From: a virus
Lineage: Duplodnaviria > Heunggongvirae > Uroviricota > Caudoviricetes
Virus record (IMG/VR): IMGVR_UViG_2548876867_000017
Span: 1 to 35,219 of that record
DNA: 35,219 bases
Direction: 5' to 3' (one strand)
This document shows, one piece after another, positions 1,616-33,391 of the stretch. Positions within the stretch are counted from its first letter, which is position 1. Each line of letters opens with the position of its first letter. Position numbers and translations under genes: made by a program. The notes below the pieces were generated by a model. That model made no database searches. It had not been told where the DNA came from and saw only the letters and a list, made by a program, of their open reading frames with translations.

Positions 1616-1651
1616 GCCCCTATCGTTATAATACACGGTAGGGGCGTTTTT
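1616..1651 (+). terminator. rho-independent terminator (loop contains TATAAT-like hexamer)
   Basis: GCCCCTA..TAGGGGC stem followed by GTTTTT after the 1354..1599 stop; loop TTATAATACA could double as a -10 element for the recombinase gene. Confidence 0.5.
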
Positions 1652-1664
1652 GTTTGGAAATGGT

Positions 1665-3344
1665 ATGAAAACTAAACTGTATTCGTATATTCGCTTCTCA
1701 TCTATGCGTCAGAATGATGGTTCGAGTTATGAACGGCAAATCAGGATGGCGAGAGAGGTTGCGGCAAAGTATGACCTTGAACTGGTAAATGATTATCAGG
1801 ATCTGGGTGTATCTGCGTTTAAGGGTGCTAACTCTAAAACAGGGGCGCTATCTCGTTTCCTTGATGCAATTGGTAGATCCGTTCCTGTTGGTAGCTGGCT
1901 ATTCATTGAAAACTTGGACCGTTTATCCCGTGCCGATATTGTCAGTGCGCAGGAGTTATTCCTTTCAATAATCCGTAGGGGGATAACCATTGTTACTGGC
2001 ATGGATAACAAGATCTACTCGCTGGATACTGTTACCGCTAACCCGATGGACCTGATGTTCTCCATCCTTTTATTCATCCGTGGTAATGAGGAAAGCCAGA
2101 CTAAGCGCAATCGTACTAACTCAAGCGCACTGATTAAGATTAAAGCCCATCAAGAAAATCCCCAGAATCCGGCAGTGGCAATCGAGGAAGTTGGAAAGAA
2201 TATGTGGTGGACTGATACCACTTCCGGTTATGTGCTGCCTCATCCGGTGTACTTCCCTGTTGTTCAGGAGATTGTGGAATTGCGGAAGAATGGACGTTCA
2301 ACCGCCGAAATACTGGATCACCTTAACGAGACTTATACACCGCCACCAGCGGTTAGCAACAAGAAGCATTCAAAATGGTCACGGGCAATGGTTGAAAGGT
2401 TGTTCCATACCCGCGCTTTGATTGGTATCAAGGAAGTCTCTGTAGATGGTGTTAATTATGAGTTAAAGGATTATTACCCTCGTGTTATTGATGATGCTAC
2501 GTTCTATCACCTTAAGAAAAATATTGGTGCTAGAGCATGGAACTTTGGAGACAAGGAAGAAGTTAAACCGATCCCCCTGCTTAGTGGTATTGGCCTATTG
2601 AAATGTGATCATTGCGGTTGCGCTATGGTTAAAGTGAAGGGAACGAACAAACGTTCTGACCAGTATCGTTATACATGTGATGCGACCCGTTCACGTAGAC
2701 TTGATTGTGAGCATCCAAACTGGAGTTTTCGAGGCGACCAATTAGAGAAAGCTGTATTGCAATTGCTGGCTGATAAAATCTGGATTGCTGAGGACAAGGC
2801 TAATCCGGTTCCGGCGTTGAAAGTACAGGTTGATGAAATATCACGCAAGATTGATAACCTGATTGCCCTTTCTGCTATGACAGGAGCAACGAAGGAGTTA
2901 GCCGATCAGATTACTACCCTCAATAGCGAGCGTGAAACACTCTACAATCAGATCAAGATGGCAGAAGAGGAAATGTATTCTGTGGACTCTCAAGGCTGGG
3001 AGAAGCTCGCAGAATTTGATTTAGAAGATGTTTATAACGAGGAACGACTAAAGGTCCGGTTTAAGATTAAGCAAGCTCTAAAGCGGATCGGGTGTAGCAG
3101 GATTGACAGAAACAAAAACTTGTTTGTACTGGAATACATCGATGGAAAAACCCAGAGAGTTGTAATAGAAAATTCAAGAGGAACGAGGAAAGGCCGGATC
3201 TTCATTGATTTGAAAACTATCAATGATAGGCAGATTCTGGAGAGCAACGGGCTTGTTCTGCATCCATGTTTAGACATGCTGACAGATAAGAACTGGAAAC
3301 CAGAAGAGGAAATACCAGGTCCATTACAGGAATTTGGAATTTAA
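1665..3344 (+). CDS. large serine recombinase (integrase/resolvase family)
   Basis: N-terminal catalytic motif YSYIRFSSMRQ with conserved Ser, DRLSR motif, Cys-rich zinc-ribbon segment (CDHCGC..CDATRSRRLDCEH), C-terminal coiled coil; start moved from TTG 1650 to ATG 1665. Confidence 0.85.
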   Translation: MKTKLYSYIRFSSMRQNDGSSYERQIRMAREVAAKYDLELVNDYQDLGVSAFKGANSKTGALSRFLDAIGRSVPVGSWLFIENLDRLSRADIVSAQELFLSIIRRGITIVTGMDNKIYSLDTVTANPMDLMFSILLFIRGNEESQTKRNRTNSSALIKIKAHQENPQNPAVAIEEVGKNMWWTDTTSGYVLPHPVYFPVVQEIVELRKNGRSTAEILDHLNETYTPPPAVSNKKHSKWSRAMVERLFHTRALIGIKEVSVDGVNYELKDYYPRVIDDATFYHLKKNIGARAWNFGDKEEVKPIPLLSGIGLLKCDHCGCAMVKVKGTNKRSDQYRYTCDATRSRRLDCEHPNWSFRGDQLEKAVLQLLADKIWIAEDKANPVPALKVQVDEISRKIDNLIALSAMTGATKELADQITTLNSERETLYNQIKMAEEEMYSVDSQGWEKLAEFDLEDVYNEERLKVRFKIKQALKRIGCSRIDRNKNLFVLEYIDGKTQRVVIENSRGTRKGRIFIDLKTINDRQILESNGLVLHPCLDMLTDKNWKPEEEIPGPLQEFGI

Positions 3345-3417: not shown

Positions 3418-4416
3418 TTAAAGAGCCTCTAAAGGGCTTAAATCGAGTTCTAAGTCTTCCGGTGTTAAATCAGCTAACGGTGCATTCATCCACTGCGATA
3501 AATCTCGTTCTATGTCTTCATCACTAATGTAGTTGTTCAGATTGATTGCGTTGGTATCATCAAAATACATTGGCTTAGATGGGTTGGTGTGGATGTATTC
3601 ATTGATGAATGATTTAACATCTTTCAGCTTGCTAATCGGTAGCGTTTCTGTGAATCCGCTATTCATTACCTTACGTGGGATTTTCTTGCCCTGAATATTC
3701 TTTTTAATCCCCATTTCTAAATCACCAGCTTTCCATCCAATGTTAAACAAATGTGAGCATTCAAAGGTGATTTTCTCGCTGGTGTGCTTCTGGTGTTCTC
3801 TTACCCGTTGCATCGGATCTTTGCGAGTGGTAATTCCATATTTGAAAAACTTCTCGCCAACACGAATTAGATAAAAGTGCATAGGGCGCTGTGCAAACTT
3901 GTTTCTGATAACCTGTTTTCTACCATTCTGAATTGATTTAAGTACACCCCTAACCAAAGGGCATGTTAACCCGCCTTGTCTGCGGTTATTGTGTAAATCA
4001 CCTTTCTTGTGAATCTTTCCGTGGCACTTACAACGAAGAATTAGTTTAGTGTCAACACCCTGATAAGGTTCAGCCAGACCTAACACATCCCACCCTATCG
4101 GCTTGTAGAACTTGCGAGCGTTTTCTAAGTGTTCTTCTTCGGTAAATCTAAACTTCTTCTTAGGCGGTGATACTCTATCTTTGCCAGTAAACTGACCAGT
4201 TAGAACATGACTAATACATGGCGTTTTAACCTTTCCGTTAACTTCTATGCAAACTTTGGTGTTCTGGAATGGTTTCTTTACAGGAAGCACAAAACCACTG
4301 TATAACCACCCATGCACTTGACAAACTTTAATGATTCTGGTTTCATATTCGACCGGAGGGGTCGCACGTTTGCTTTTTGCGGTAAATTCGATATCCTTTG
4401 CTAAAGTAGTATTCAT
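3418..4416 (-). CDS. putative homing endonuclease-like protein with GIY-YIG-related (T5orf172-like) motif
   Basis: Internal segment HFYLIRVGEKFFKYGITTRKDPMQRVREH resembles the T5orf172/GIY-YIG-like signature; Cys/His cluster CKCHGKIHKKGDLH; RBS GAGGA upstream. Confidence 0.45.
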   Translation of the reverse strand: MNTTLAKDIEFTAKSKRATPPVEYETRIIKVCQVHGWLYSGFVLPVKKPFQNTKVCIEVNGKVKTPCISHVLTGQFTGKDRVSPPKKKFRFTEEEHLENARKFYKPIGWDVLGLAEPYQGVDTKLILRCKCHGKIHKKGDLHNNRRQGGLTCPLVRGVLKSIQNGRKQVIRNKFAQRPMHFYLIRVGEKFFKYGITTRKDPMQRVREHQKHTSEKITFECSHLFNIGWKAGDLEMGIKKNIQGKKIPRKVMNSGFTETLPISKLKDVKSFINEYIHTNPSKPMYFDDTNAINLNNYISDEDIERDLSQWMNAPLADLTPEDLELDLSPLEAL

Positions 4417-11891: not shown

Positions 11892-12545
11892 TTACTTTTT
11901 AGACGAGTGCCAGCGGCTTTCGCTATTCCACTTCCCGGCACGAGAGAAGAATAGATCGTTCTCGTTTCCGGCATAAGATCGGTGGATACCATCGGAGGCA
12001 TGACTACGAGCGTTTTTATCTAGAACTTCCCAGATACTATTAAGCTGAAATTCTGATTCGTTTTTACACTCATCATCTTCATGTTCGATGTTAATCCCGA
12101 TGGAATCGACTACCCCACGGAAAACAGGGTAAGTGGTTTCAACCTTGCCCGTGTTAGGGTTCAGGAACACCATTTCGATTTTCACATCTGATTTATCGAA
12201 TTGCTTATTACGAATCAGGGTAATGTATTCTTCGCGAACGTTAGAAACGGTTACGTTAATCCCGTTGTTGTTGATCTCCTTCTCTTCGGTATTCGATGAG
12301 ATTTGAAGAAAATCACCCGTTGCAAGATACGTAAATCCGTTATAGTCCAAATCGAAATACCCATCTGTAAGCCGTAGAACGTCCCCTGACGCGGTTACTA
12401 CTTCGATAATGTGAAACATCGATCCAGTGGAGAAAAGCTGCGGTAGAGTCAATCTAGACACATTCTGACCTGTCTGGTCGTTGTATACCTCGATGAAGTC
12501 CAGATTAGTGCATAGTTTGCTGAATGATTCCTGAATAGTTGCCAT
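11892..12545 (-). CDS. minor tail protein
   Basis: 217 aa; start overlaps upstream stop (TAATG); located between tape measure and tip genes. Confidence 0.5.
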   Translation of the reverse strand: MATIQESFSKLCTNLDFIEVYNDQTGQNVSRLTLPQLFSTGSMFHIIEVVTASGDVLRLTDGYFDLDYNGFTYLATGDFLQISSNTEEKEINNNGINVTVSNVREEYITLIRNKQFDKSDVKIEMVFLNPNTGKVETTYPVFRGVVDSIGINIEHEDDECKNESEFQLNSIWEVLDKNARSHASDGIHRSYAGNENDLFFSRAGKWNSESRWHSSKK

Positions 12546-13105
12546 TATACATTCTCCACTAATTCAAATTTCATCTTGCCGATCTGGGCGATCTTCCAAT
12601 CGATGTTTTCAGTTTTGAGAACAAATTCACCTTCTACGTTCTGATACTTGATCACCTCACCCGCCAGGACGTTCTGACGCAAGTTAGGGAAGAGTTTCAT
12701 TTCGCCACCTGATTTCACGTCTTCGGTGATCGTGTAGATTTTCTTGTGGTTCTCAAACTGGATGATAGTTCCCGCTTTCAGTGTTCCGGTGAAGTTGGAG
12801 AGTCTTACCTTACGCCCACCGCGAGCAGTACCAGCAGCAGCCGTTACCATCTGGCGTACATCACCTGTATATTTTGAAAAGTAAGACAGTGGCACATTGA
12901 AAGGACGACCAAAAAGGTGACGTGCTACAAATTCTTTTACTTCGTTAATATCCTGAGCCATGAAATTAGCTGTAAATTCTGCTTCATAAAAATGGATGCC
13001 AGTAAAGCGACGCTGGAACTTACCGGAGATAGATTGCGCCTTGAAGAAAGGCTGTTTTGATTTAAGAGTAAAATCTGTGATTTTAATATTTTTGGATTTG
13101 AACAT
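12545..13105 (-). CDS. minor tail protein (distal tail / gpM-like position)
   Basis: 186 aa immediately downstream of tape measure gene; RBS GGGGG embedded in upstream hairpin. Confidence 0.5.
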   Translation of the reverse strand: MFKSKNIKITDFTLKSKQPFFKAQSISGKFQRRFTGIHFYEAEFTANFMAQDINEVKEFVARHLFGRPFNVPLSYFSKYTGDVRQMVTAAAGTARGGRKVRLSNFTGTLKAGTIIQFENHKKIYTITEDVKSGGEMKLFPNLRQNVLAGEVIKYQNVEGEFVLKTENIDWKIAQIGKMKFELVENV

Positions 13106-13110
13106 AGAAA

Positions 13111-13150
13111 AGCCCCCATAGTTTTATGATTATTTATCACTATGGGGGCT
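13111..13150 (-). promoter_or_regulatory. GC-rich hairpin sequestering the RBS of the downstream tail gene
   Basis: 10 bp stem AGCCCCCATA / TATGGGGGCT with about 20 nt loop between tape measure stop (13156) and next start (13105); the 3-prime arm contains the GGGGG Shine-Dalgarno. Confidence 0.45.
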
Positions 13151-13155
13151 TTTAA

Positions 13156-15585
13156 TTACATCTTACGACGCTGAACGTCTTCTATCGCCTGAGCAACAAA
13201 CTTAGCGTGACGTTTGATAGCATCCATGACCATCTTGTCTGAGCTATTAACGTTGCCGTTAATGTTCAAAGGCGCATTAACTTCAATCGGCTGAGAGTTA
13301 CCACCGCCTGATTTTTGAGCCGCAAGGAAGTCTTTCAAATCACCGTTAGTACGCTGATCAACTACTCGTTCACCCTTATCAAGCAACCATGTACCCTCAC
13401 GAGGGATATTATCGATACCATCATGAGCCATACCGCTAACGTTAGTAGACTTGATGTTTGCGATGTTCCCCATGTTCTGAGAAACAGCCAATGCAGCAGC
13501 AGCGATTTTTTGACCTGTGGTTACGTTGGTCGGATCGTTCCATGCATCGGTAGCAGCCGTCCACATGTTCACCGTCGCTTGTCCGATAGAGAATGCTTTA
13601 TGAGCATTGAAAGCCATCTGCATAGCTTTAGTGTTTTCCTGCCCGAAGAGAGTCATTGCAGCAGCAAAACCGCCGTACATATCATCAGCTATTGACTGGC
13701 GAGCATCAGCATATTTCTTCTCAATTGCAGCCATTCGTTTTTGATGGTTTTCATTGAGTTTTTCTAATTCTTCCATCCGTTTAGCCGGATCGGTGATCCC
13801 ATCAATCTTGAGTTTATCGGTCTTATAATCTTGTTCCGCTTCCGATTTCTCTTTATCGATTGCATTAAATTTAGCAAACGGATTATTTGAGTCTTGATAA
13901 TCATAACCACTAGTTAATTGATTGGTTTTATAACCATCCATTCCCTGTAAAGAATTTTCAATCTGAGAATAGTTTTGCTCGGTATCGTTCACACGACGCA
14001 TATATTCTTCGTAGGAGATAGCTTTACCATCAAGTAACCGTTTATGGCTTTCTAGCTCGTTGTCCCTGATTTGTTGCAATTGTGTTAAAGCATTCAGAGC
14101 ATCAATCGGATCAGCACCCAACATCATTTTATAAACGTTTTCAGTATTCTGATCGATTAGCGCCTGGCGTTTCGCGGCTGCGTCTTCCTGAGAGATTAAG
14201 CCCAGAGCTAACGCGTCGTTCACATCTTTTAAGCTGTTTTGCAACTGGCTATTTTGAGAAGTGATAGACGCTGCAACTTGCCCTTGCAATTTAACATCAA
14301 GTGCATTCAGTCGCTTGATTGCATCCTCGCGTGCTTTCTGTGCTTTTTCTGCGGCTTCCTTAGCCTTTTTAGCTGCCTCTTCCGCTTTCTTTTTGGCTTC
14401 TTCCTCGGCTTTCTTCTCGTTGCCAGACTTACCCAATGAAGCTGGTCGAGTTGGTGTAGTCGGGATAGTCAAATCACGGTTAGGATCTGCCTTGCGGGTT
14501 AGATGTTCCCCGTTATCGACAACAATCAGAGAGCCATTTTTCTTATAAGAATCACCAAAACGTTTCTTAAATCCTTCAACATCAAAGCCAGCAGTACGAG
14601 GATCAACACCAGCACCACGGATCGCGGCCTTTTCCCAATCTGCCAGATTATTCCAACGCTTTTCTTTATTGTACTTGTCAATAATCTTTTGAGCGTCTTT
14701 ATGGTTGGCGTTAAGAATACCGCCAGTTGCGGTCTTGCCTTCTTTATTCAGTCGGTCTAATGCCCTGAATAGAGAACTCTTTTCCCAATCAATATTAAAC
14801 CATTCAAATAACCAGTTTAAGCTATCAACCAAAGGACCAGTAATGGTCATGCCGACACCTTTCAGGTTATTTTCCAGCTTATTGATATTTTGAGAAAATT
14901 TATCATATTTTTTAGCGTTTTCTTCGGTGACGTTAACAGATTGATTCTGAATAGCGATCATCGCCTCTTGAGCACTATTATATTTCTCAAGCTGGCTGGT
15001 CATATGGCTTGAATCACTGGCTAAAGATTCCATCATGAACTTGATTTCAGCCATTGATTTTCCGGCTTTCTTCATGTCATAGAACACTTGGATCGCCGCT
15101 TTCATACCACCTTGCGGATCGGTCATGAAGTGAGCATAGTTTTCTAACTTAAGGCCAACCGATTCTAAATCATCGGCAATACCACCACCGTTAGCCCATG
15201 CATCACCCATCTTGTCTAAGGTGTCTTTGTTGATATCACCAAATTTTTCAACTGTTAAGCCAGTGCCAGAAAATTCCTTTTCCAGTCTTTGAAGGGATTC
15301 AATCGATAGTCCGGTCGCCTTAGATACTTCTGAATACTGTTTAACGTATTCCGCGCCAGCTTTAGCGGCTGCAAAAACTGCGGTCGCAACTAAGCCGATA
15401 CCACCAGCAGCCAAACCAGCAGAGCCAGCGATCCCACGAAGAGATCCAGTCAAACCAGACAAACCACCGCCAAAATCGATATTACTTGCCTTTTCAGACA
15501 AACTATCTAGAAGGTTAGCGGCTTCATTGGTACTTCTCCTTAGACCTTTATTATCCCCTTCTATTGTTACTATATGTTTTGTCAT
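13156..15585 (-). CDS. tail tape measure protein
   Basis: 809 aa, long alpha-helical/coiled-coil regions, Lys/Glu/Ala-rich segment, Gly-rich N-terminal segment; follows G/T chaperone pair; RBS AAGGGG. Confidence 0.85.
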   Translation of the reverse strand: MTKHIVTIEGDNKGLRRSTNEAANLLDSLSEKASNIDFGGGLSGLTGSLRGIAGSAGLAAGGIGLVATAVFAAAKAGAEYVKQYSEVSKATGLSIESLQRLEKEFSGTGLTVEKFGDINKDTLDKMGDAWANGGGIADDLESVGLKLENYAHFMTDPQGGMKAAIQVFYDMKKAGKSMAEIKFMMESLASDSSHMTSQLEKYNSAQEAMIAIQNQSVNVTEENAKKYDKFSQNINKLENNLKGVGMTITGPLVDSLNWLFEWFNIDWEKSSLFRALDRLNKEGKTATGGILNANHKDAQKIIDKYNKEKRWNNLADWEKAAIRGAGVDPRTAGFDVEGFKKRFGDSYKKNGSLIVVDNGEHLTRKADPNRDLTIPTTPTRPASLGKSGNEKKAEEEAKKKAEEAAKKAKEAAEKAQKAREDAIKRLNALDVKLQGQVAASITSQNSQLQNSLKDVNDALALGLISQEDAAAKRQALIDQNTENVYKMMLGADPIDALNALTQLQQIRDNELESHKRLLDGKAISYEEYMRRVNDTEQNYSQIENSLQGMDGYKTNQLTSGYDYQDSNNPFAKFNAIDKEKSEAEQDYKTDKLKIDGITDPAKRMEELEKLNENHQKRMAAIEKKYADARQSIADDMYGGFAAAMTLFGQENTKAMQMAFNAHKAFSIGQATVNMWTAATDAWNDPTNVTTGQKIAAAALAVSQNMGNIANIKSTNVSGMAHDGIDNIPREGTWLLDKGERVVDQRTNGDLKDFLAAQKSGGGNSQPIEVNAPLNINGNVNSSDKMVMDAIKRHAKFVAQAIEDVQRRKM

Positions 15586-15596
15586 AAATTACCCCT

Positions 15597-15938
15597 TTAA
15601 CCGCTTCTGAGTTTCTCAAGCAAAGATGGATCAAACATGTTCAGCATTGCCGCTTTACGTTCTTCTTCTTTCTTGCGTGCAATTTCTTCCAGTTCTTCTT
15701 TAGTTTTAAAGAGTTTTTCTTCTCTAATTAATTGGAATTGGCTAGGCTTGAGTTTGCGTGCAGTTTCGCGTGTCATTCCTTGCGACGTCATATACATGGA
15801 ATATTGCAACATCGCATTCTGCATATCATGAAACGCGGGGCTTTGTGGTTCTAAGTAGGTGTCGAAAATGTATAACTTCCAAAACAGAGTGATTGGCATA
15901 TTATCCATTTCATCTTTACTAAGCCCCGATCTCATCAT
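15597..15938 (-). CDS. tail assembly chaperone T segment (probably expressed as G-T fusion by -1 frameshift)
   Basis: In -1 frame relative to upstream chaperone ORF; frame is open from 15983; no convincing RBS before its own ATG. Confidence 0.55.
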   Translation of the reverse strand: MMRSGLSKDEMDNMPITLFWKLYIFDTYLEPQSPAFHDMQNAMLQYSMYMTSQGMTRETARKLKPSQFQLIREEKLFKTKEELEEIARKKEEERKAAMLNMFDPSLLEKLRSG

Positions 15939-15967
15939 TTGCCGGAAATAGAAATTCAGAAGCGGGT

Positions 15968-16276
15968 TTACTTTACCTCGTTTTCAATTACCGCCGCATC
16001 TTGCATCAATGACGCTTGAGCAACCAAACCGATTAATTCACTTCGGACGTTAGTATACAGTGCCTTAACTTGTTCAATAGATTCAAATACTGGCTTACCA
16101 TCTTCATCTTCAATACAACGAAGAATCGAACGTTCATCACGGTCTTCTTTATCGGTATTGAAAACATGTTCATTAAATTCTTTTACTGACATAGGGCGAG
16201 CATAGAACGTAAATCCACCGATGGTTACAGATTCGCGTTTCGGAGAGAGTGCGGCTAACATTTCATTAATATTCAT
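15968..16276 (-). CDS. tail assembly chaperone (gpG-like)
   Basis: 102 aa acidic protein between tail tube and tape measure genes; RBS AAGAGGAAA. Confidence 0.65.
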   Translation of the reverse strand: MNINEMLAALSPKRESVTIGGFTFYARPMSVKEFNEHVFNTDKEDRDERSILRCIEDEDGKPVFESIEQVKALYTNVRSELIGLVAQASLMQDAAVIENEVK

Positions 16277-16330
16277 TCTTGTTTCCTCTTAAGTTAATTA
16301 GATATGTTTATTTAGAATTGGAAACAAAAA

Positions 16331-16350
16331 AGCCACCCCGAAGGATGGCT
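16331..16350 (-). terminator. intrinsic terminator after tail tube gene
   Basis: Hairpin with UUCG loop on the minus-strand transcript followed by a run of six U, 8 nt after the 16359 stop. Confidence 0.6.
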
Positions 16351-16358
16351 AGAGAATA

Positions 16359-16829
16359 TTAGACTTTCTGGAAAACAGCTTGTTTAACCGGAGCACCATC
16401 TACTACAAAGGTGAAGGTACGGCCTACTACAGCATCCTCACCACCAGTCATGGTAGTTTTAGACAGGAAGCCGTTATAAGCGATATGTACACCAGATTTT
16501 TTCGTAGCGTCGATGTAGTAAGCAATTTTAAGCTGTACGCGCTTACCGTCTTCGGTTGCTTTAATCAGTTTTTCGTGTACTTCGTTACCCGGCATGTAGT
16601 TGATCGAAAGTTCGATATCCGGTACAGACATACGACCAACCAGCTTACGGTTATACGGACCACCGAAGTTAGGAACATCGACAGTAGAACGTTCTACACC
16701 AGTTTCCGGGAAAGCCGCACATTCTGGAATTTCCAGATAGGTTTCAGCATCAAGGTCTTTATTGCTTACGTCTTCTTGCAGAAACAGACCAACGAGGCCA
16801 CCAGAAAAAATATCAAATTTAGTAGTCAT
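16359..16829 (-). CDS. major tail tube protein (lambda gpV N-domain-like)
   Basis: 156 aa; segment LSINYMPGNE..KRVQLKIAYY resembles the gpV tube-domain pattern; strong codon bias; directly upstream of G/T chaperones. Confidence 0.65.
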   Translation of the reverse strand: MTTKFDIFSGGLVGLFLQEDVSNKDLDAETYLEIPECAAFPETGVERSTVDVPNFGGPYNRKLVGRMSVPDIELSINYMPGNEVHEKLIKATEDGKRVQLKIAYYIDATKKSGVHIAYNGFLSKTTMTGGEDAVVGRTFTFVVDGAPVKQAVFQKV

Positions 16830-22155: not shown

Positions 22156-22578
22156 TTAAAAACGCGCTACATAAGAAAATTTAAGGCTAAGTGTCCCAAC
22201 GATACCCCCATCACTAGAATCATCGTCATAATCGGTATTAGAAGCTACTGGAGTGATATCTGAAATAGAGAAGCCCAAATCTTTAAAACGTGGGTTATCC
22301 GGCTGAATCTGGATTATCTGGCAAATACCCTCATGAATTTTTGTTTCATGAATCTGAGAATATAATTGCATTTCGATAACGCATTCAGCTTGCATTGCAT
22401 TACCACCACGGACCCTATTGTAAGTCTCATTCATTCCGGTAATCCAACAAACCACGTCATCACTAAAGCCTTGCTGAGTTTGTTCTACGTTTAAAGCCAG
22501 ACCTAAATCTTGTTCGATAATATCCTGCAAGGCGCGTTTGATTTTCAGTCTAGGCATATTATTAACGGTAGCGAGCAT
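22156..22578 (-). CDS. hypothetical head-tail joining protein
   Basis: Start moved to ATG 22578 with RBS AGGGGG 7 nt upstream (ORF-track start 22659 overlaps upstream gene by 98 nt). Confidence 0.45.
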   Translation of the reverse strand: MLATVNNMPRLKIKRALQDIIEQDLGLALNVEQTQQGFSDDVVCWITGMNETYNRVRGGNAMQAECVIEMQLYSQIHETKIHEGICQIIQIQPDNPRFKDLGFSISDITPVASNTDYDDDSSDGGIVGTLSLKFSYVARF

Positions 22579-27184: not shown

Positions 27185-29089
27185 TTAGAACGATGTTACC
27201 CAGCTACGGCCTCTATTTGGGCGTCTGACGATGTTTTGACGTTGTGGTCGTGTGATTGGCTTAGTTTCTTCTATTTGCTCGTTAGATTGCGATTTAGGAG
27301 CTTTTACGGGTTCTTCGACAACACGGTTTAAGCTGTCTTTCATTGCAATGAGTTTATCCCATGACATTTTTGAAAGGACGTAGCGAGAAGCCGCTGTAGC
27401 ATACACGGCGCAGTCGAGCGCCTCGTTCCTAACGCCTGGGTTCTTTACCCATCTCACGCCAGTAGTAGTACGCTTGACAGATTCACTTAAAAGCTGATCG
27501 AGATAATCATCAGGAACGGTGTCTGATATTTCTAAGGCAATATGAGGATTATCTTTCAGGTTCCTAGCCAACATTTCACGAAATGCAGTTTTACCCACGT
27601 TAACACCCAACATAAGCAATTCATGACCACCTGTGCGGGTAGGTTTAACCGGAATGATCGGAGCGTTACCAGCAGAACTACCTTTGATAGCGTGTAAGTT
27701 CTTCCACTTGCCGCAAATACGGTATCCAGCTTGAGTGAATCGACCGTTCGATGTATCAAGGAAGCTGGCGAGCATAGGAACACGATCACCCGATACAGTA
27801 GTAAATTTGGTTTTATGGAAGTTGATTAATCTATCCCATACAGGTGATTCATATCGTTCACAGTTATGATCGTAAAAGCTGCGGTGATCCAGAATATAAA
27901 TCTTATCCTTTGCCACGCCCATGATCGTAGTTTCTGCGCGATCTAATTGCTGGTCAGTACCCGCACACAAGAAAATCACGTCATCAGGGATATTCTCGAT
28001 AGAAACATCTGTTTTGAGTTGTTCCAGTTCATTTGCTTCTACTGCCGTGTCCTGATCGTCGTATACCTTGCCTAACACGGTGTTAAAAAAGGATTGTAAA
28101 TCAAAGGATTGCCACGCATGACTAAAATCAACCACACAAGCGCGGATCGTACTGAAAGGTGAATACAGACGACTGATCCAGAATCCTGCTACTTCACTTT
28201 CACGGGTTGCTCTCCACTCGCCTTGCGCTACTGCCCTGATTCGTTCCCCTTCTGTCCATGCGTTCTTACAGTGGGGGCAAATATAACGAGCGGTATCAGG
28301 ATCGGGTAAGTTCTTACCATCAATGTTACGCCATTCAAATTGAACGTTTTCCCACTCGATCACCTGGTGTTCCCCGCAATGAGGACACGGAACAAAAAAC
28401 ATACGCATATCACTTGATAACCATTGCTGGTTAATGATTCCCAGCTTATTGGTTGGGGTACTAGAAACAATCAATCGAGCTTCATCACCAAAGGTAGTTA
28501 AACGGTTTGCAGTTAGTGCCACCGGACAACCTTCTTCGGTGATTGTTGCTGCGTCGCATTCGTCTACAATCCCTAACTTGGCAGTACGCCCACGCAAACT
28601 TGAAGGACTGGTCAAAGAAACCATGTAAAGGAAATGGTTTGTTTTTAGCTGAATCTGGTTATTGTTGTTTACCGCATTACGATCATTCTTATCTGTTACC
28701 ACTTCCTGTAATGCCGGACATGCTTCAATAGAAGGACGGATCTTAGTATTCAAGTACATAGCCACTTCTTTAGCGGTACTTTGCCCGATAATGATATTGC
28801 ACGGATCGTTTGCCATCTGGTTAAACATGATCCCTGACATGATGGTCGTCTTTCCGATCTGCGCACTCGTACAAAAAACGTACTTCTTTTTCTTCTCAAG
28901 GAAAGGAGCATCAATCATGCCTTTCTGAAATGACAGTAATTTAACTTTATCCCCAGCACGAGGACCATCGACTAGCGTTAGATTCGCTTCGCACCATTCA
29001 GAAGGAAGGAGCTTAGGCGGTGGCGTAATATATTTGGCTGCATTTTTAAGAATCTTTTTTAATTTTGCCTTATTAGAAATCAGTTTCAT
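27185..29089 (-). CDS. terminase large subunit (lambda gpA-like)
   Basis: 634 aa; motifs [28 protein letters not shown] and [14 protein letters not shown] correspond to lambda gpA segments as I recall them; Walker A-like AQIGKT; RBS GAGGG. Confidence 0.85.
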
Positions 29090-29176: not shown

Positions 29177-29782
29177 ATGCTAATTGATCAGCAACAAAGA
29201 GATGAATTAGAATTAGCCTTTTCTTGTTGTACCGATCATGAATATCGTTTGCCAGTTAAGCACCATCACAAGAAGACTGATTACACAACATCTGGCTTTA
29301 GTCGTGAGGAAGCTAAACAGATTTTAATCGAGTTGTATCGCGATCATGGGTATACCGATATTCATAACTTCTTTAAGAAGCATCGCACATCACAGACAGA
29401 GTTTCAGCGAGTCCGTGAGTGGTTTGATTTTGACATTAAGCGATTCTATCGAGTAGATGACGGTCCTATCTATCGGTTGCAGTGGAAGCCGATCCGAGAA
29501 GTGCTTAAACAGAAGAGATTGAATCATGCCATTACACGCTATCGTAATGTGGCTTTCAAGAAAGGCTATGGTGATACAAGGGAATTGTTTGTAGAACTCG
29601 CTAACGTGCGATATAGCCATTATTACAGGAATCCTAAAGAGTTCTTCGAAGTGCTGCGCAAGGTTGATATAAGTCGGGGTACATACTATTCACGGTTGAA
29701 GAAGTACGGGATTAAGGCAGAGTTTTTTATGTCAGTTGACGATGGAGAACTTTTTCCGATAAAATGTAAGTCCTCTAAATAA
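29177..29782 (+). CDS. protein with C-terminal resolvase/transposase-type HTH motif (putative transcription regulator)
   Basis: 201 aa; C-terminal [16 protein letters not shown] fits the HTH_7/HTH_23 pattern; RBS AAGGGGG; divergent from the terminase operon. Confidence 0.5.
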
Positions 29783-29816
29783 AGGTGAACATTCACTTTA
29801 ATTTGGAGAAATGACT

Positions 29817-30044
29817 ATGACTACTAAAGCTACTCGCGGTCGTCCTGCCCGTTTTAACGCTGAACAGATGGCTGATATTGCCTACGCTTATTATACAGCG
29901 GATCGTGGTAAGGAAGCGAAAGAACAGATTCTTAGTGAACATGGGATCTCAATCGCCCAATTCTATAAGAATATGAAGAAGTTAGACATTAAATTCTATG
30001 TTCAGATCGGTGATGGTCAGATCGTAGAAGCAACAGGTTTTTGA
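29817..30044 (+). CDS. small HTH protein (paralog family with 33212..33391)
   Basis: Start taken at second ATG (better SD spacing); RGRPARF..ADIAYAYY..ISIAQFYKNMKKLDIKFYVQI parallels the 33212 product. Confidence 0.5.
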   Translation: MTTKATRGRPARFNAEQMADIAYAYYTADRGKEAKEQILSEHGISIAQFYKNMKKLDIKFYVQIGDGQIVEATGF

Positions 30045-30052
30045 TTCTCTTT

Positions 30053-30076
30053 GCCACTCTTCGGAGTGGCTTTTTT
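30053..30076 (+). terminator. rho-independent terminator
   Basis: GCCACTC-TTCG-GAGTGGC hairpin followed by TTTTTT after stop of 29817..30044. Confidence 0.7.
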
Positions 30077-30955: not shown

Positions 30956-31044
30956 AGTAAAAATTCCCCTTAAACGGTTTAGTGATTTGGTCCTCCTAGT
31001 TCCGGCAGCATCACCGGAACATTTTTATTTATGATAGAAATTTA

Positions 31045-31377
31045 TTACCAATCGATTTCTACTTGGTCTTCTTCATAATAAGGAATCGCATATTCATAAC
31101 GCCAATTTTCGATGATTTCACGTTCTTCATTAGTAAGAAGGTGATTGTTAACTGGAGTCGCATTGTGATTACCAGCTTCGAATTGCTCGCGAACTTCCAG
31201 CATTGCATGAATACCAGTTAAGGTCATCAGATCAAACGGAACATGCATACTACGGGAGATAGTTTCACGGGATACGCCCCAATCATTTTCTACATGGCTA
31301 GGGGTTACAGAAACGGTTTTGCCGGAGATTTTAACAGTCCAGTCATACAGGGATTTAGTGATGGTAAATTCTTTCAT
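31045..31377 (-). CDS. hypothetical protein
   Basis: 110 aa; RBS AAGAGGA; first gene after the leftward promoter at about 31434-31462. Confidence 0.55.
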   Translation of the reverse strand: MKEFTITKSLYDWTVKISGKTVSVTPSHVENDWGVSRETISRSMHVPFDLMTLTGIHAMLEVREQFEAGNHNATPVNNHLLTNEEREIIENWRYEYAIPYYEEDQVEIDW

Positions 31378-31433
31378 GTTACATCCTCTTTACAAATCTA
31401 GGTCAAATATAATAAAAGTTGTCAAGTGCGATA

Positions 31434-31462
31434 ATCATAAAAAAGTCATAAATTTTTGTCAA
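31434..31462 (-). promoter_or_regulatory. sigma70-like promoter driving leftward genes
   Basis: On minus strand TTGACA (31462..31457), 17 bp spacer, TATGAT (31439..31434); the -35 is half of a TGTCAA-6nt-TTGACA inverted repeat. Confidence 0.5.
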
Positions 31463-31497
31463 TATACCTTGACAAGACGCCAAAGGGTTGACCTAAC

Positions 31498-31947
31498 TTA
31501 CAGCATATCTAAGCCTTCATCGTAACCGTAGAAGCCACCGTGAGAAGAGAAAGCGATTGGTGCGTAGTCTTCGTCTTCCTCATCTTGTTCTGGGGCTTCC
31601 TGAGCGGTTTCTTTACCGTAATTAAACATTGCTTCATCCAGTTCACGAAGAGTCAAGAAGCTACCCAGGTCAATGTCACCGGAACGGACTTGAAACGGCA
31701 GATCATCACGAACAATAATTGCTGGAATATCGTTGTATTGAAGACGACCCTCATCAGTAAAACAGTCGATGATCACAGTAGGACGACCATTTCGTTTTAA
31801 AGCGTAGAAAGCAGTTGAGTAGTTGGAGTCTTCGGAATGACGAATGATGTTATAACCACGATGAGCGAAAACTTCTAGCATATGGAAGTTACCATAGTTT
31901 TCAGAGTCCAGACCCAGAAGTACGAAAGGAGTTTTAGTATTGATCAT
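31498..31947 (-). CDS. hypothetical protein with acidic C-terminal region
   Basis: Start moved to ATG 31947 (MINTKTPF) with RBS AGAGGA; conserved upstream box shared with gene 3418..4416. Confidence 0.55.
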   Translation of the reverse strand: MINTKTPFVLLGLDSENYGNFHMLEVFAHRGYNIIRHSEDSNYSTAFYALKRNGRPTVIIDCFTDEGRLQYNDIPAIIVRDDLPFQVRSGDIDLGSFLTLRELDEAMFNYGKETAQEAPEQDEEDEDYAPIAFSSHGGFYGYDEGLDML

Positions 31948-32524
31948 AGTGGTATCCTCTAAAAGAAAGTGAATCAAGTAAGTTCACTATTATTTATAAA
32001 GAGAAAATTCTTGTTATTATGAAAGGTGATTGTATTCAGTCGGGCAAAGCCCTCCTTCATGATTTGATTAAATCATCATCAAAACGAAGAAGTATCTTTA
32101 GAATATAAGAATCTTTCTTTTGGAGAAATAATAATCAGGAAGCAATTTAGCAACCGAAGGTTGCAATCCCGAAGGGATACCAATACCTTTCTAGAAAGTG
32201 ATTGTTACTCACTTCGTTCGTTTACTAGAATCAGTTAGTAACTAGTATTAAATCCCTTTCTAAGAAAATCCTTTCAAAAGCGAGTGAACGCCGTAGGCGT
32301 GAACGTGAGCGAAGCGAACTATCCAATCCCTTTCGAATCCTGCTTGCAGGTCTTAGAAGGTGTTGATGGGCGCTTCGCGCACGGCTACGCCGTATTCTTT
32401 TTGCGAGATCTTTCTTGAACGTAGTGAGAGAAAACGAGCAAAAAGGAGAACGTTAGTTCGAATTTTATATTCTATGGTCTGTGGGGTGAAATGTCTTTCA
32501 AGATCATACGCTTATGAGATTGAA

Positions 32525-32648
32525 GTGTAGGGTTAGTGTAGGTGTGTAGGTTTCATAGTGTAGGTTTGAGGGTGTTATAGTGTAGGTTTACTGACTAGTG
32601 TAGTGTAGGCCAATCCCTTTAAAGCGTAGGTTTGTAGTGTAGGTTTTT
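32525..32648. repeat. iteron-like array of about 8 copies of (A)GTGTAGGTTT
   Basis: Direct repeats at about 32525, 32536, 32544, 32558, 32580, 32603, 32626, 32637, spaced 8-23 bp, in an ORF-free region and followed by an AT-rich tract. Confidence 0.6.
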
Positions 32649-32751
32649 CATCAAAAATTTTGATAGAAAATTCTTGTATATTATTTAACCGGAAAATCAC
32701 CAAAAATCGCTGTAAATGTATGATTTAAAAAGAATTATCAAAAGGTCGCCG

Positions 32752-32760
32752 TGCTATAAT
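32752..32760 (+). promoter_or_regulatory. extended -10 promoter element (TGcTATAAT)
   Basis: TGCTATAAT at 32752-32760 in AT-rich region upstream of rightward genes; weak -35. Confidence 0.4.
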
Positions 32761-32840
32761 AGGTTATAAAGGTTGATAATCGTTATCCGCCATTTTCACA
32801 CAAAAATTTTGATAGTCATTTCTCGCTTAGGTCAAGTGCA

Positions 32841-32869
32841 TTGACAACTGTCAAGGATTATTTTATACT
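32841..32869 (+). promoter_or_regulatory. near-consensus sigma70 promoter for rightward genes
   Basis: TTGACA (32841-32846), 17 bp spacer, TATACT (32864-32869); -35 is part of palindrome TTGACA-AC-TGTCAA. Confidence 0.6.
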
Positions 32870-33211
32870 TTTTCTCATTGGTAGGGGTTGAAATTTTCGA
32901 AACAATCCCCATATTGATGATAAACAAGATTTTTTCGTGTATAAATACATGCATGAAATGATTGTTCACTTCTGAAAATCCCCTGATTCACTGTTAACAC
33001 ACACAGCACTGGTTAAACACACAGTGCTTTTTCGATTGAATAATGTACGAATTGATTAATTATTAATCTTCTCTTTAGCAATTCGTGCTCCCACTGATCA
33101 GATATACAGTGGTTTTGCAGGGTTTTCTGAAATGACTTTTATAAATAGAAGTATCGAGGGCGAAAAGCTCTTTTTATTGTCCTTATTAATCCACATTTGA
33201 GGAATCTACTT

Positions 33212-33391
33212 ATGGCTAGACCTGTTAAGTTTACTCGTGAAATGATTGTTGATATTGCTAAACGCTTTTATGGCGATACTGAACGAGGCGGCGAGAATTT
33301 CTTTAAGAAGGAAGGAATTGATAGAAGCGGATTCTATAAGCTAATGAAGAAATACGAAATTCAGATAAAGATTAACGTTCAAGTTTGTTAA
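33212..33391 (+). CDS. small HTH protein (paralog of 29817..30044)
   Basis: Start at ATG 33212 with RBS GAGGAA; ARPVKF..VDIAKRFYG..IDRSGFYKLMKKYEIQIKINVQ parallels the 29817 product. Confidence 0.5.
   Translation: MARPVKFTREMIVDIAKRFYGDTERGGENFFKKEGIDRSGFYKLMKKYEIQIKINVQVC

Follow-up and report, generated by a model that had tools for sequence, protein, structure and literature searches.

Conserved TTGACA-type boxes at two outward-facing early promoters of an Escherichia coli prophage family

In the immunity region of phage lambda, two strong early promoters face outwards from a leftward gene and each is overlaid by a repeated element; the lambda operators are 17-bp near-palindromes that are distinct from the -35 hexamer and are read by a CI dimer. 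In the immI region of P22 (Pant, arc-ant, Mnt/Arc), a near-consensus promoter leads into a small first gene and then the Ant gene, and operator-like sequence lies within and beside the core promoter. The C1 operators of P1 are asymmetric words that stand singly or in pairs, in either orientation, often over the -35 hexamer, and are read by a monomer. The current analysis concerns a window of 35,219 nt (positions 1 to 35,219 of IMG/VR record IMGVR_UViG_2548876867_000017), an E. coli prophage of a temperate family without prior description, in which copies of the words TTGACA and TGTCAA overlie two early promoters, here named P_left and P_right. The early proteins of this family other than Rha match no known family, and the boxes are the first concrete, testable handle on its switch: they tell which bases to mutate and which DNA would serve as bait for a regulator. 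Operator-like repeats over phage early promoters are expected biology, and the surprise is a modest one.

P_left and P_right face outwards from a 1.4-kb block that comprises ORF149 and a 1.2-kb region free of open reading frames (ORFs) (Table 1). Both promoters satisfy the sigma-70 arrangement of hexamers 16–18 bp apart, they are the only exact matches to TTGACA-N17-TATNNT in the window, and they are the two strongest promoters of the prophage. The good minus-strand promoter with a TATGAT -10 that a first-pass annotation of this DNA had named is P_left, with 11 of 12 consensus positions; it drives ORF110 and then Rha from a start predicted, by the position of the -10, at about 31427. P_right, with a start placed in the same way at about 32876–32877, drives a 335-nt leader followed by ORF59 and the rest of the rightward operon.

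In terms of box anatomy, each promoter carries a pair of inverted hexamers. At P_left, TGTCAA (31457–31462), TATACC (31463–31468) and TTGACA (31469–31474) are present as the first-pass annotation placed them, the arms of the inverted repeat being in fact 7 bp long (TTGTCAA and TTGACAA) around a 6-bp spacer. At P_right, TTGACA and TGTCAA are separated by AC and overlap the -35, also as annotated, with the end of the pair at 32854 rather than at 32856, which takes in two extra G. In each pair, one arm serves the promoter as its -35 and the other is an orphan box without a -10 partner. The annotation had read the left pair as a consensus -35 on each strand; this reading holds for the minus strand, whereas the plus-strand TTGACA is not a promoter, the hexamers at -10 distance from it being CCTAAC, CCTATC, TTAGAG or TTTGAA across relatives.

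The left orphan, element b, is an inverted copy of the P_left -35 (element c), and the right orphan, element h, lies within the P_right spacer. A further orphan, element e, is found 8 nt past the P_left -10 and 37 bp from c. A promoter scan gave no -10 partner at 16–18 bp for b, e or h, and none was seen by eye in the relatives; the hexamers at that distance in the window are CCTAAC, CCTAGA and CCTAAG, and those in the relatives are equally poor. Promoter function alone thus does not explain these three boxes, a behaviour that sites bound by a regulator would be expected to show. Elements a and f are weaker, GGTCAA-type copies at P_left, and element g at P_right matches b in relative position and orientation. 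A 28-bp unit, TAGGTCAA-N12-TGTCAAG (direct-repeat family D4), has three copies in the window: f and e together form the copy at 31399–31426, a and b the inverted copy at 31495→31468, and g starts the copy at 32828–32855.

The boxes are clustered. Window-wide, the heptamer shows no enrichment (7 copies against 8 expected), but 4 of the 7 lie in the two promoter spots. The pentamer core TTGAC/GTCAA occurs 49 times (1.4 per kb), with five cores in 95 bp at P_left (31400–31494) and three in 27 bp at P_right (32829–32855); when 49 hits are placed at random, the probability of at least five in one 100-bp span is 5.5e-4. Among intergenic pentamers of the window, eight of nine fall in the two promoter clusters.

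Conservation was followed in 49 related loci that were collected. The intergenic region at P_left, IG1, is 86–99% identical among E. coli relatives, including those in which ORF149 is 59–69% and ORF110 61% identical at the protein level. Across 34 distinct E. coli sequences, which are closely related and thus not independent observations, the columns that vary number 3 of 35 in the five heptamers and 47 of 79 elsewhere (Fisher p = 1.6e-7). The comparison across genera is more telling than that within E. coli. In four Salmonella relatives, b, c and e are identical at 20–21 of 21 positions, against 38–42% in the other 93 intergenic columns; in Proteus the figures are 17 of 21 against 44%, with b and c kept and e lost. 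The -35 and -10 of P_left are retained in the E. coli, Salmonella and Proteus relatives. Element b is near-invariant across the 34 E. coli sequences and is retained in Salmonella and Proteus, and e is invariant in the E. coli relatives and lies 37 bp from c there, as it does in all Salmonella relatives. Of the weaker copies, f is invariant in the E. coli relatives and is not kept in Salmonella, whereas a is kept in Salmonella L048, weakened in L049 (TTGATCT) and absent in L046 and L047.

P_right is conserved in 17 E. coli sequences, termed class A, and in Salmonella. The TGTCAA of element h is unchanged in 16 of the 17, while the two bases that precede it vary in 5–6 sequences and two of the four that follow vary in 8. 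The arrangement TTGAC-N4-GTCAA is retained in class-A E. coli and in Salmonella, where the flanks are otherwise unrelated, and Salmonella L048 and L049 carry TTGACAAG 8 nt past the P_right -10, as at P_left. Element g is only partly conserved, as TAG[GA]TCA[ATG], and is absent in Salmonella. The first-pass annotation had held that lack of conservation in relatives would speak against its proposal; the boxes are kept from E. coli to Salmonella and Proteus, and the orphans b, e and h have stayed conserved amid diverging flanks, which is conservation past the needs of a promoter. The same cannot be said of the 9-mer GTCAAGTGC, which recurs exactly at both promoters, as annotated, and is not conserved at P_right: relatives have GGTCATGAG, GATCATTGG or GATCAGGGG in place of the right copy, which Salmonella lacks, and the left copy is conserved beyond GTCAA within E. 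coli only, Salmonella having GTCAATGAA. A third exact copy (4314–4322, minus strand), within the codons for KVCQVHGW of an accessory gene present in 7 relatives only, is taken as chance.

Table 1. Features of the early region of the prophage; positions are those of the window.
Feature	Position	Strand or direction	Remarks
P_left, sigma-70-type	31434–31462	minus	-35 TTGACA 31462→31457, 17-nt spacer, -10 TATGAT 31439→31434; 11/12
P_right, sigma-70-type	32841–32869	plus	-35 TTGACA 32841–32846, at -35..-30, 17-nt spacer, -10 TATACT 32864–32869; 11/12
Element a, TTGACCT	31488–31494	plus	19 bp from b; -67..-61 of P_left
Element b, orphan TTGACAA	31469–31475	plus	inverted -35 copy, about -48..-42 of P_left; right arm of left palindrome
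Element c, TTGTCAA as read on the plus strand	31456–31462	minus	P_left -35, at -35..-30
Element e, orphan TTGACAA	31419–31425	minus (transcribed strand)	about +3..+9 of P_left
Element f, AGGTCAA	31400–31406	plus	19 bp from e; +22..+28 of P_left
Element g, AGGTCAA	32829–32835	plus	about -47..-41 of P_right
Element h, orphan TGTCAA	32849–32854	plus	within P_right spacer, about -27..-22
9-mer GTCAAGTGC, left copy	31421–31429	plus	overlaps element e
9-mer GTCAAGTGC, right copy	32831–32839	plus	overlaps element g
Conserved RNA hairpin	31458–31492	minus (ORF149-sense)	begins 6 nt past ORF149 stop codon
Rha	30955→30125	leftward	
ORF110	31377→31045	leftward	
Intergenic region IG1	31378–31497		120 bp, between ORF110 and ORF149
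ORF149	31498–31947	leftward	
ORF-free stretch			1.2 kb, between ORF149 and ORF59
ORF59	33212–33391	rightward	ORF331 next, also rightward
Leader hairpin	33006–33033		AGCACTG-N10-CAGTGCTTTTT
Leader hairpin	33092–33117		CCACTG-N10-CAGTGGTTTT
Leader hairpin	33156–33177		GAGGGC..GCTCTTTTT
Class-B loci (L004, L005, L007, L008, L011, L012, L025, L028, L040)			right promoter about 830–945 nt upstream of ORF149

The most likely reading of these observations, though one for which the case seems to us evenly balanced, makes TTGAC(A) the word by which a putative regulator would recognise and occlude both early promoters. The orphans and the -35 copies together would be recognition sites for one sequence-specific DNA-binding regulator, most likely phage-encoded, which would act not as a rigid dimer but in monomeric form or as an oligomer with flexible links. 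Its binding would occlude the -35, the spacer and the start site and thereby shut off both early promoters at once; by analogy with the immunity region of lambda, coordinated shut-off of P_left and P_right would be the natural reading. The left outer arm may serve a second purpose, within the 3' arm of an RNA hairpin by which the ORF149 transcript is terminated or stabilised. The sites with their clustering and conservation, the missing -10 partners and the hairpin are observed; protein binding, its repressive effect and the identity of the binder are what we infer here. Of the operator half-sites proposed in the first-pass annotation, the overlap with two strong outward promoters and the conserved orphans stand, and the notion of one palindromic operator does not. 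A narrower and unlikely version has the regulator recognising the -35 consensus TTGACA[A] itself, in competition with sigma region 4, with the orphans serving cooperativity; were it true, the family would have a lysis-lysogeny switch that dispenses with a CI/Cro pair and is built on a "-35 mimic" operator, together with a leader laden with terminators and, between the promoters, an ORF-free block resembling an origin.

Candidates for the binder are the putative helix-turn-helix (HTH) paralogues ORF59, ORF77 and ORF201, or Rha. ORF59, ORF77 (29811–30044) and the C-terminus of ORF201 (29585–29782) are paralogues with 31–41% identity that share R-P-x-x-F ... G-I-x-x-x-x-F/Y-x-x-x-K-K; the relatives in E. 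coli, Salmonella and Proteus retain all three. Two parts of the ORF59 family are invariant, namely the N-terminal arm MARPVKF (MARPVKFTRE) and a core in the third helix, the putative recognition helix. The model of ORF59 is a three-helix bundle (helices 9–21, 28–34 and 38–47; pLDDT 78); its best profile matches, both weak, are to the SorC HTH (E = 0.062) and the NtrC-family DNA-binding domain (E = 0.43), its top Foldseek matches are HTH domains with E above 2, and it has no Pfam match. From this model and these weak matches ORF59 may be a small helix-turn-helix protein, and as such a plausible binder. Rha is the sole product of the P_left operon that is conserved in all three genera.

ORF110, which adjoins the sites, was rejected as the cognate binder because it is replaced by unrelated proteins of 59–64 residues in some Salmonella relatives that keep the sites. 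The string WGVSRETISRS in ORF110 had prompted suspicion of an HTH; the model is a beta-sheet with two helices that has no significant structural match, the sequence has no match in the PDB, and a scan of GTDB species representatives with ORF110 found no relative. ORF149, the leftward gene between the promoters, is a fast-evolving acidic orphan: it has an acidic C-terminal tail and 59–88% protein identity among relatives, against 86–99% identity in the adjacent non-coding DNA, and it matches no family in Pfam, PHROGs, NCBIfam or PADLOC and has only 9 related representatives among 1.84 billion proteins. ORF331 has hundreds of homologues, essentially all hypothetical, one being labelled as ABC-transporter-domain. 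No Pfam family was found for the 185-residue protein and the other right-end genes of the relatives. A literature search on the motif pair returned nothing relevant.

Several observations weigh against a dedicated regulator of both promoters. No CI/Cro, LexA-type or other known repressor was found among the early-region and flanking proteins scanned, nor was a repressor identified for the switch proposed in the first-pass annotation, and the sites persist where the adjoining ORF110 is swapped for unrelated small genes in Salmonella. The assignment of ORF59 as helix-turn-helix is a weak one, with E-values of 0.06–2.6. Neither a fixed spacing nor a uniform geometry of half-sites, as expected for a dimeric repressor, was found: the b–c spacer, between GTCAA and TTGAC, is 6, 7 or 8 bp across relatives owing to a G-run of variable length, and the left pair reads TGTCAA-N6-8-TTGACA, the right TTGACA-N2-TGTCAA, in the opposite orientation. 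A rigid dimer therefore cannot read both pairs, and the variable geometry requires the weaker assumption of flexible or monomeric binding. The core is only 5–7 bp long and is itself the -35 consensus, so that promoter function explains one part of the conservation, that of c and of the P_right -35; some of the constraint on b is likewise explained by the conserved hairpin that shares it. The footprint within E. coli draws on related sequences. Proteus has lost e and has ATGCAA in place of h, and the class-B E. coli relatives retain the left promoter region with a different rightward promoter that is without element h. This class-B promoter is a tandem of TTGACA-N17-TATACT and TTGACA-N18-TATAAT; the first spacer holds the iteron-like TGTAGGTTT (TGTAGG), and iterons lie directly upstream.

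The conserved hairpin 3' of ORF149 forms in the ORF149-sense RNA. Its 3' arm consists of GUCAAGGGG and part of the -35, includes element b and is fixed in sequence, whereas the 5' arm is lineage-specific; element a pairs with element c in the fold. In the window the fold reaches only -11.6 kcal/mol because its G-run is broken. The majority type of E. coli attains -20.0 (z -3.6), Proteus -17.6 (z -4.6) and the Salmonella relatives -14.0 to -17.5. Owing to G-U pairs the ORF149-sense strand is the more stable of the two, the values for the opposite strand being -11.9 and -11.1. A terminator scan does not call the hairpin, as no U-run directly follows the stem in E. coli; in Proteus a U-rich run begins 5 nt after the stem. 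These features point to an RNA-level element such as a terminator or 3' stabiliser. Element b occupies the stem in E. coli and Proteus and the loop in Salmonella L046, with the same sequence in both settings, and the hairpin alone therefore does not explain b. The palindromes by themselves were rejected as plain hairpins, being too weak (-6.9 to -7.6 kcal/mol on the left; -4.2 kcal/mol, z -0.9, for TTGACAACTGTCAA on the right) and not terminator-like. Terminator-like plus-strand hairpins are also found at 30053–30076, after ORF77 (GCCACTCTTCGGAGTGGCTTTTTT), and at 30999–31020, between Rha and ORF110 (GTTCCGGCAGCATCACCGGAACATTTTT); the latter would halt transcription antisense to Rha and not the P_left transcript.

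Each rival explanation covers part of the data, and none explains a word that is conserved across genera at two promoters with unrelated flanks. Were RNA structure alone at work, the left site would be the 3'-end hairpin of ORF149 standing beside the next promoter, the right TGTCAA would tune promoter strength and no regulator would be involved. The position of the hairpin just past the ORF149 stop in every lineage, with different 5' arms and z-scores reaching -4.6, fits this account, and the variable run of 6–8 nt, a G-run, between the arms suits a stem better than the site of a protein dimer. It is nonetheless somewhat unlikely, given that the terminator scan is silent, that b stays exact in stem or loop, that e and h have no hairpin role and yet are conserved across genera, and that a hairpin leaves unexplained the same 5–7-bp word at two promoters 1.4 kb apart. 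Contacts by RNA polymerase would offer another function, with the orphans as auxiliary or competing sites for sigma-70 region 4, be it of a second polymerase or of one recaptured after initiation, that modulate strength, escape or interference in the absence of a dedicated regulator. Every copy is an exact -35 consensus, the positions (-48..-42, -27..-22 and +3..+9) are within reach of the polymerase, and no recognisable repressor gene occurs among the proteins scanned; the account is still quite unlikely, as no -10-like partner lies at 16–18 bp, two of the three orphans are reversed and nothing computed favours such contacts over a dedicated binder. The known sigma-dependent promoter-proximal pausing, moreover, requires a -10-like element, which is absent here.

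The sites might instead serve an activator or a host factor, the inverted pair near -39 recruiting or remodelling the polymerase. The stretch occupied by b and g, -48..-41, is one at which many activators bind, and the sites persist in three host genera and despite the exchange of ORF110. Both promoters are near consensus (11 of 12), so that activation should be unneeded, however, and sites at +3..+9 and in the spacer are at typical repressor positions. Inspection by eye for a LexA box (CTGT-N8-ACAG) found no CTGT or ACAG in 31378–31497 and, at P_right, a lone CTGT (32847–32850) without ACAG 8 bp away, and neither the CRP (TGTGA-N6-TCACA) nor the FNR (TTGAT-N4-ATCAA) consensus, whose class II sites centre near -41.5, fits the TGTCA-N8-TGACA near -39. 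We regard this explanation as about as improbable as that by polymerase contacts. Finally, the extra copies could be chance, without function beyond the two -35 hexamers and carried along in a conserved recombination junction between prophages. In keeping with such a linker, E. coli IG1 is 86–99% identical where the flanking proteins are 59–69%, and the heptamer lacks window-wide enrichment; but the linker has diverged to about 40% in Salmonella and Proteus while the heptamers remain, the clustering is improbable by chance and the same word stands in the non-homologous flanks of P_right, and we regard absence of function as very improbable.

The region between and beyond the promoters has further features. 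An extended -10-like site, TGCTATAAT (32752–32760, plus strand), precedes P_right by about 100 bp; most class-A E. coli relatives retain it, Salmonella does not, and as it has no -35 it was skipped by the promoter scan. The P_right leader (32876–33211, 335 nt) is more conserved than the start of ORF59 and folds better than shuffled sequences (z -3.9). It contains three terminator-like hairpins that are conserved from E. coli to Salmonella and three direct repeats CACTG-N8-9-ACAG, features that suggest termination/antitermination control or a short RNA product.

The ORF-free block (31978–33196, notably 32040–32400 and 32520–32650) is 1.2–1.6 kb long in Salmonella and Proteus and shares 64–66% identity with Salmonella. 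It contains 7–11 iterons TAGTGTAGGTTT and a series of short hairpins, GC-rich and with G-N-A triloops, in whose stems every change is compensated (GCAACC-GAA-GGTTGC to GGATGC-GTA-GCATCC or GCCCC-GTA-GGGGC), and mini-hairpins of the GCGAAGC type occur on both strands. The block has the look of a replication origin equipped with signals for single-strand initiation, or else of a structured RNA. Rfam gave no family at the gathering threshold in the whole window, with chance-level hits only in 31300–33300, and GC skew follows gene orientation and locates no origin. A 75-nt segment (32063–32137) shares 81–82% identity with an intergenic element, without annotation, that RB49-like T4-type phages (Krischvirus) carry in 1–3 copies per genome and that appears in 59 phage records; RB49 itself has it more than once in the gap upstream of a DprA-like gene.

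The prophage itself codes for a large serine recombinase (integrase, 1650–3344), a large terminase of the lambda type (27185–29089, minus strand), an endolysin and a long minus-strand block of presumed structural genes; the Rha-family protein, also on the minus strand, matches PHROG anti-repressor families. At 22301–22391, on the plus strand amid the minus-strand structural genes, ARAGORN predicts a tRNA-Lys of 91 nt (anticodon TTT), which is doubtful in view of its odd length and position. Among 50,697 deposited phages, no nucleotide-level relative of the window was found at high identity, and in a low-identity search of that collection the sole match was a 75-nt one to RB49-like phages; ORF149 has no protein-level match there, and the collection includes no isolated phage of this family. 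Chromosomal prophages matching the window occur in 58 of 5426 complete E. coli genomes (about 1%), where the genes near the promoter boxes are all annotated as hypothetical, Rha excepted. Related prophages with equal gene order are found in Salmonella and Proteus mirabilis, and the family also occurs in Shigella. One relative on the chromosome of E. coli PE15 (L038) carries an ISApl1-mcr-1-PAP2-ISApl1 composite transposon (12108–16761) within the prophage, directly downstream of the ORF331 homologue. The right ends of the Salmonella relatives L046–L049 show a shortened PHP-domain gene followed by a 2-hydroxyacid dehydrogenase gene, presumably of the ycdWXYZ operon, and the prophage there looks integrated into ycdX; a literature search on the integration site returned nothing relevant.

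In comparison with lambda, this prophage shares two strong outward early promoters with a repeated element over each and a leftward gene between, at a spacing of 1.4 kb against about 2.4 kb. It differs in that the repeat is a 5–7-bp word that coincides with the -35 consensus and whose copies vary in orientation and spacing, in that no CI/Cro-like protein was found in the scans and in that the gene in between, ORF149, has no DNA-binding signature. The left site also resembles an intrinsic terminator or 3' stabilising hairpin beside the next promoter, having a GC-rich hairpin 6 nt after the ORF149 stop; unlike an intrinsic terminator, it has no U-run directly after the stem, and the inverted -35 word lies in its 3' arm, whose sequence does not vary. 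The order of near-consensus promoter, small first gene and Ant/Rha-like gene is that of P22 immI, as is operator-like sequence within and beside the core promoter, whereas no ribbon-helix-helix protein was recognised here, the first gene is not conserved and the fold of ORF110 is unmatched. The P1 C1 operators, for which no C1 homologue was found here, are 17 bp long and scattered over the genome, in contrast to a word of 5–7 bp at two promoters only; their flexible geometry, however, is of the kind that would be needed at P_left and P_right.

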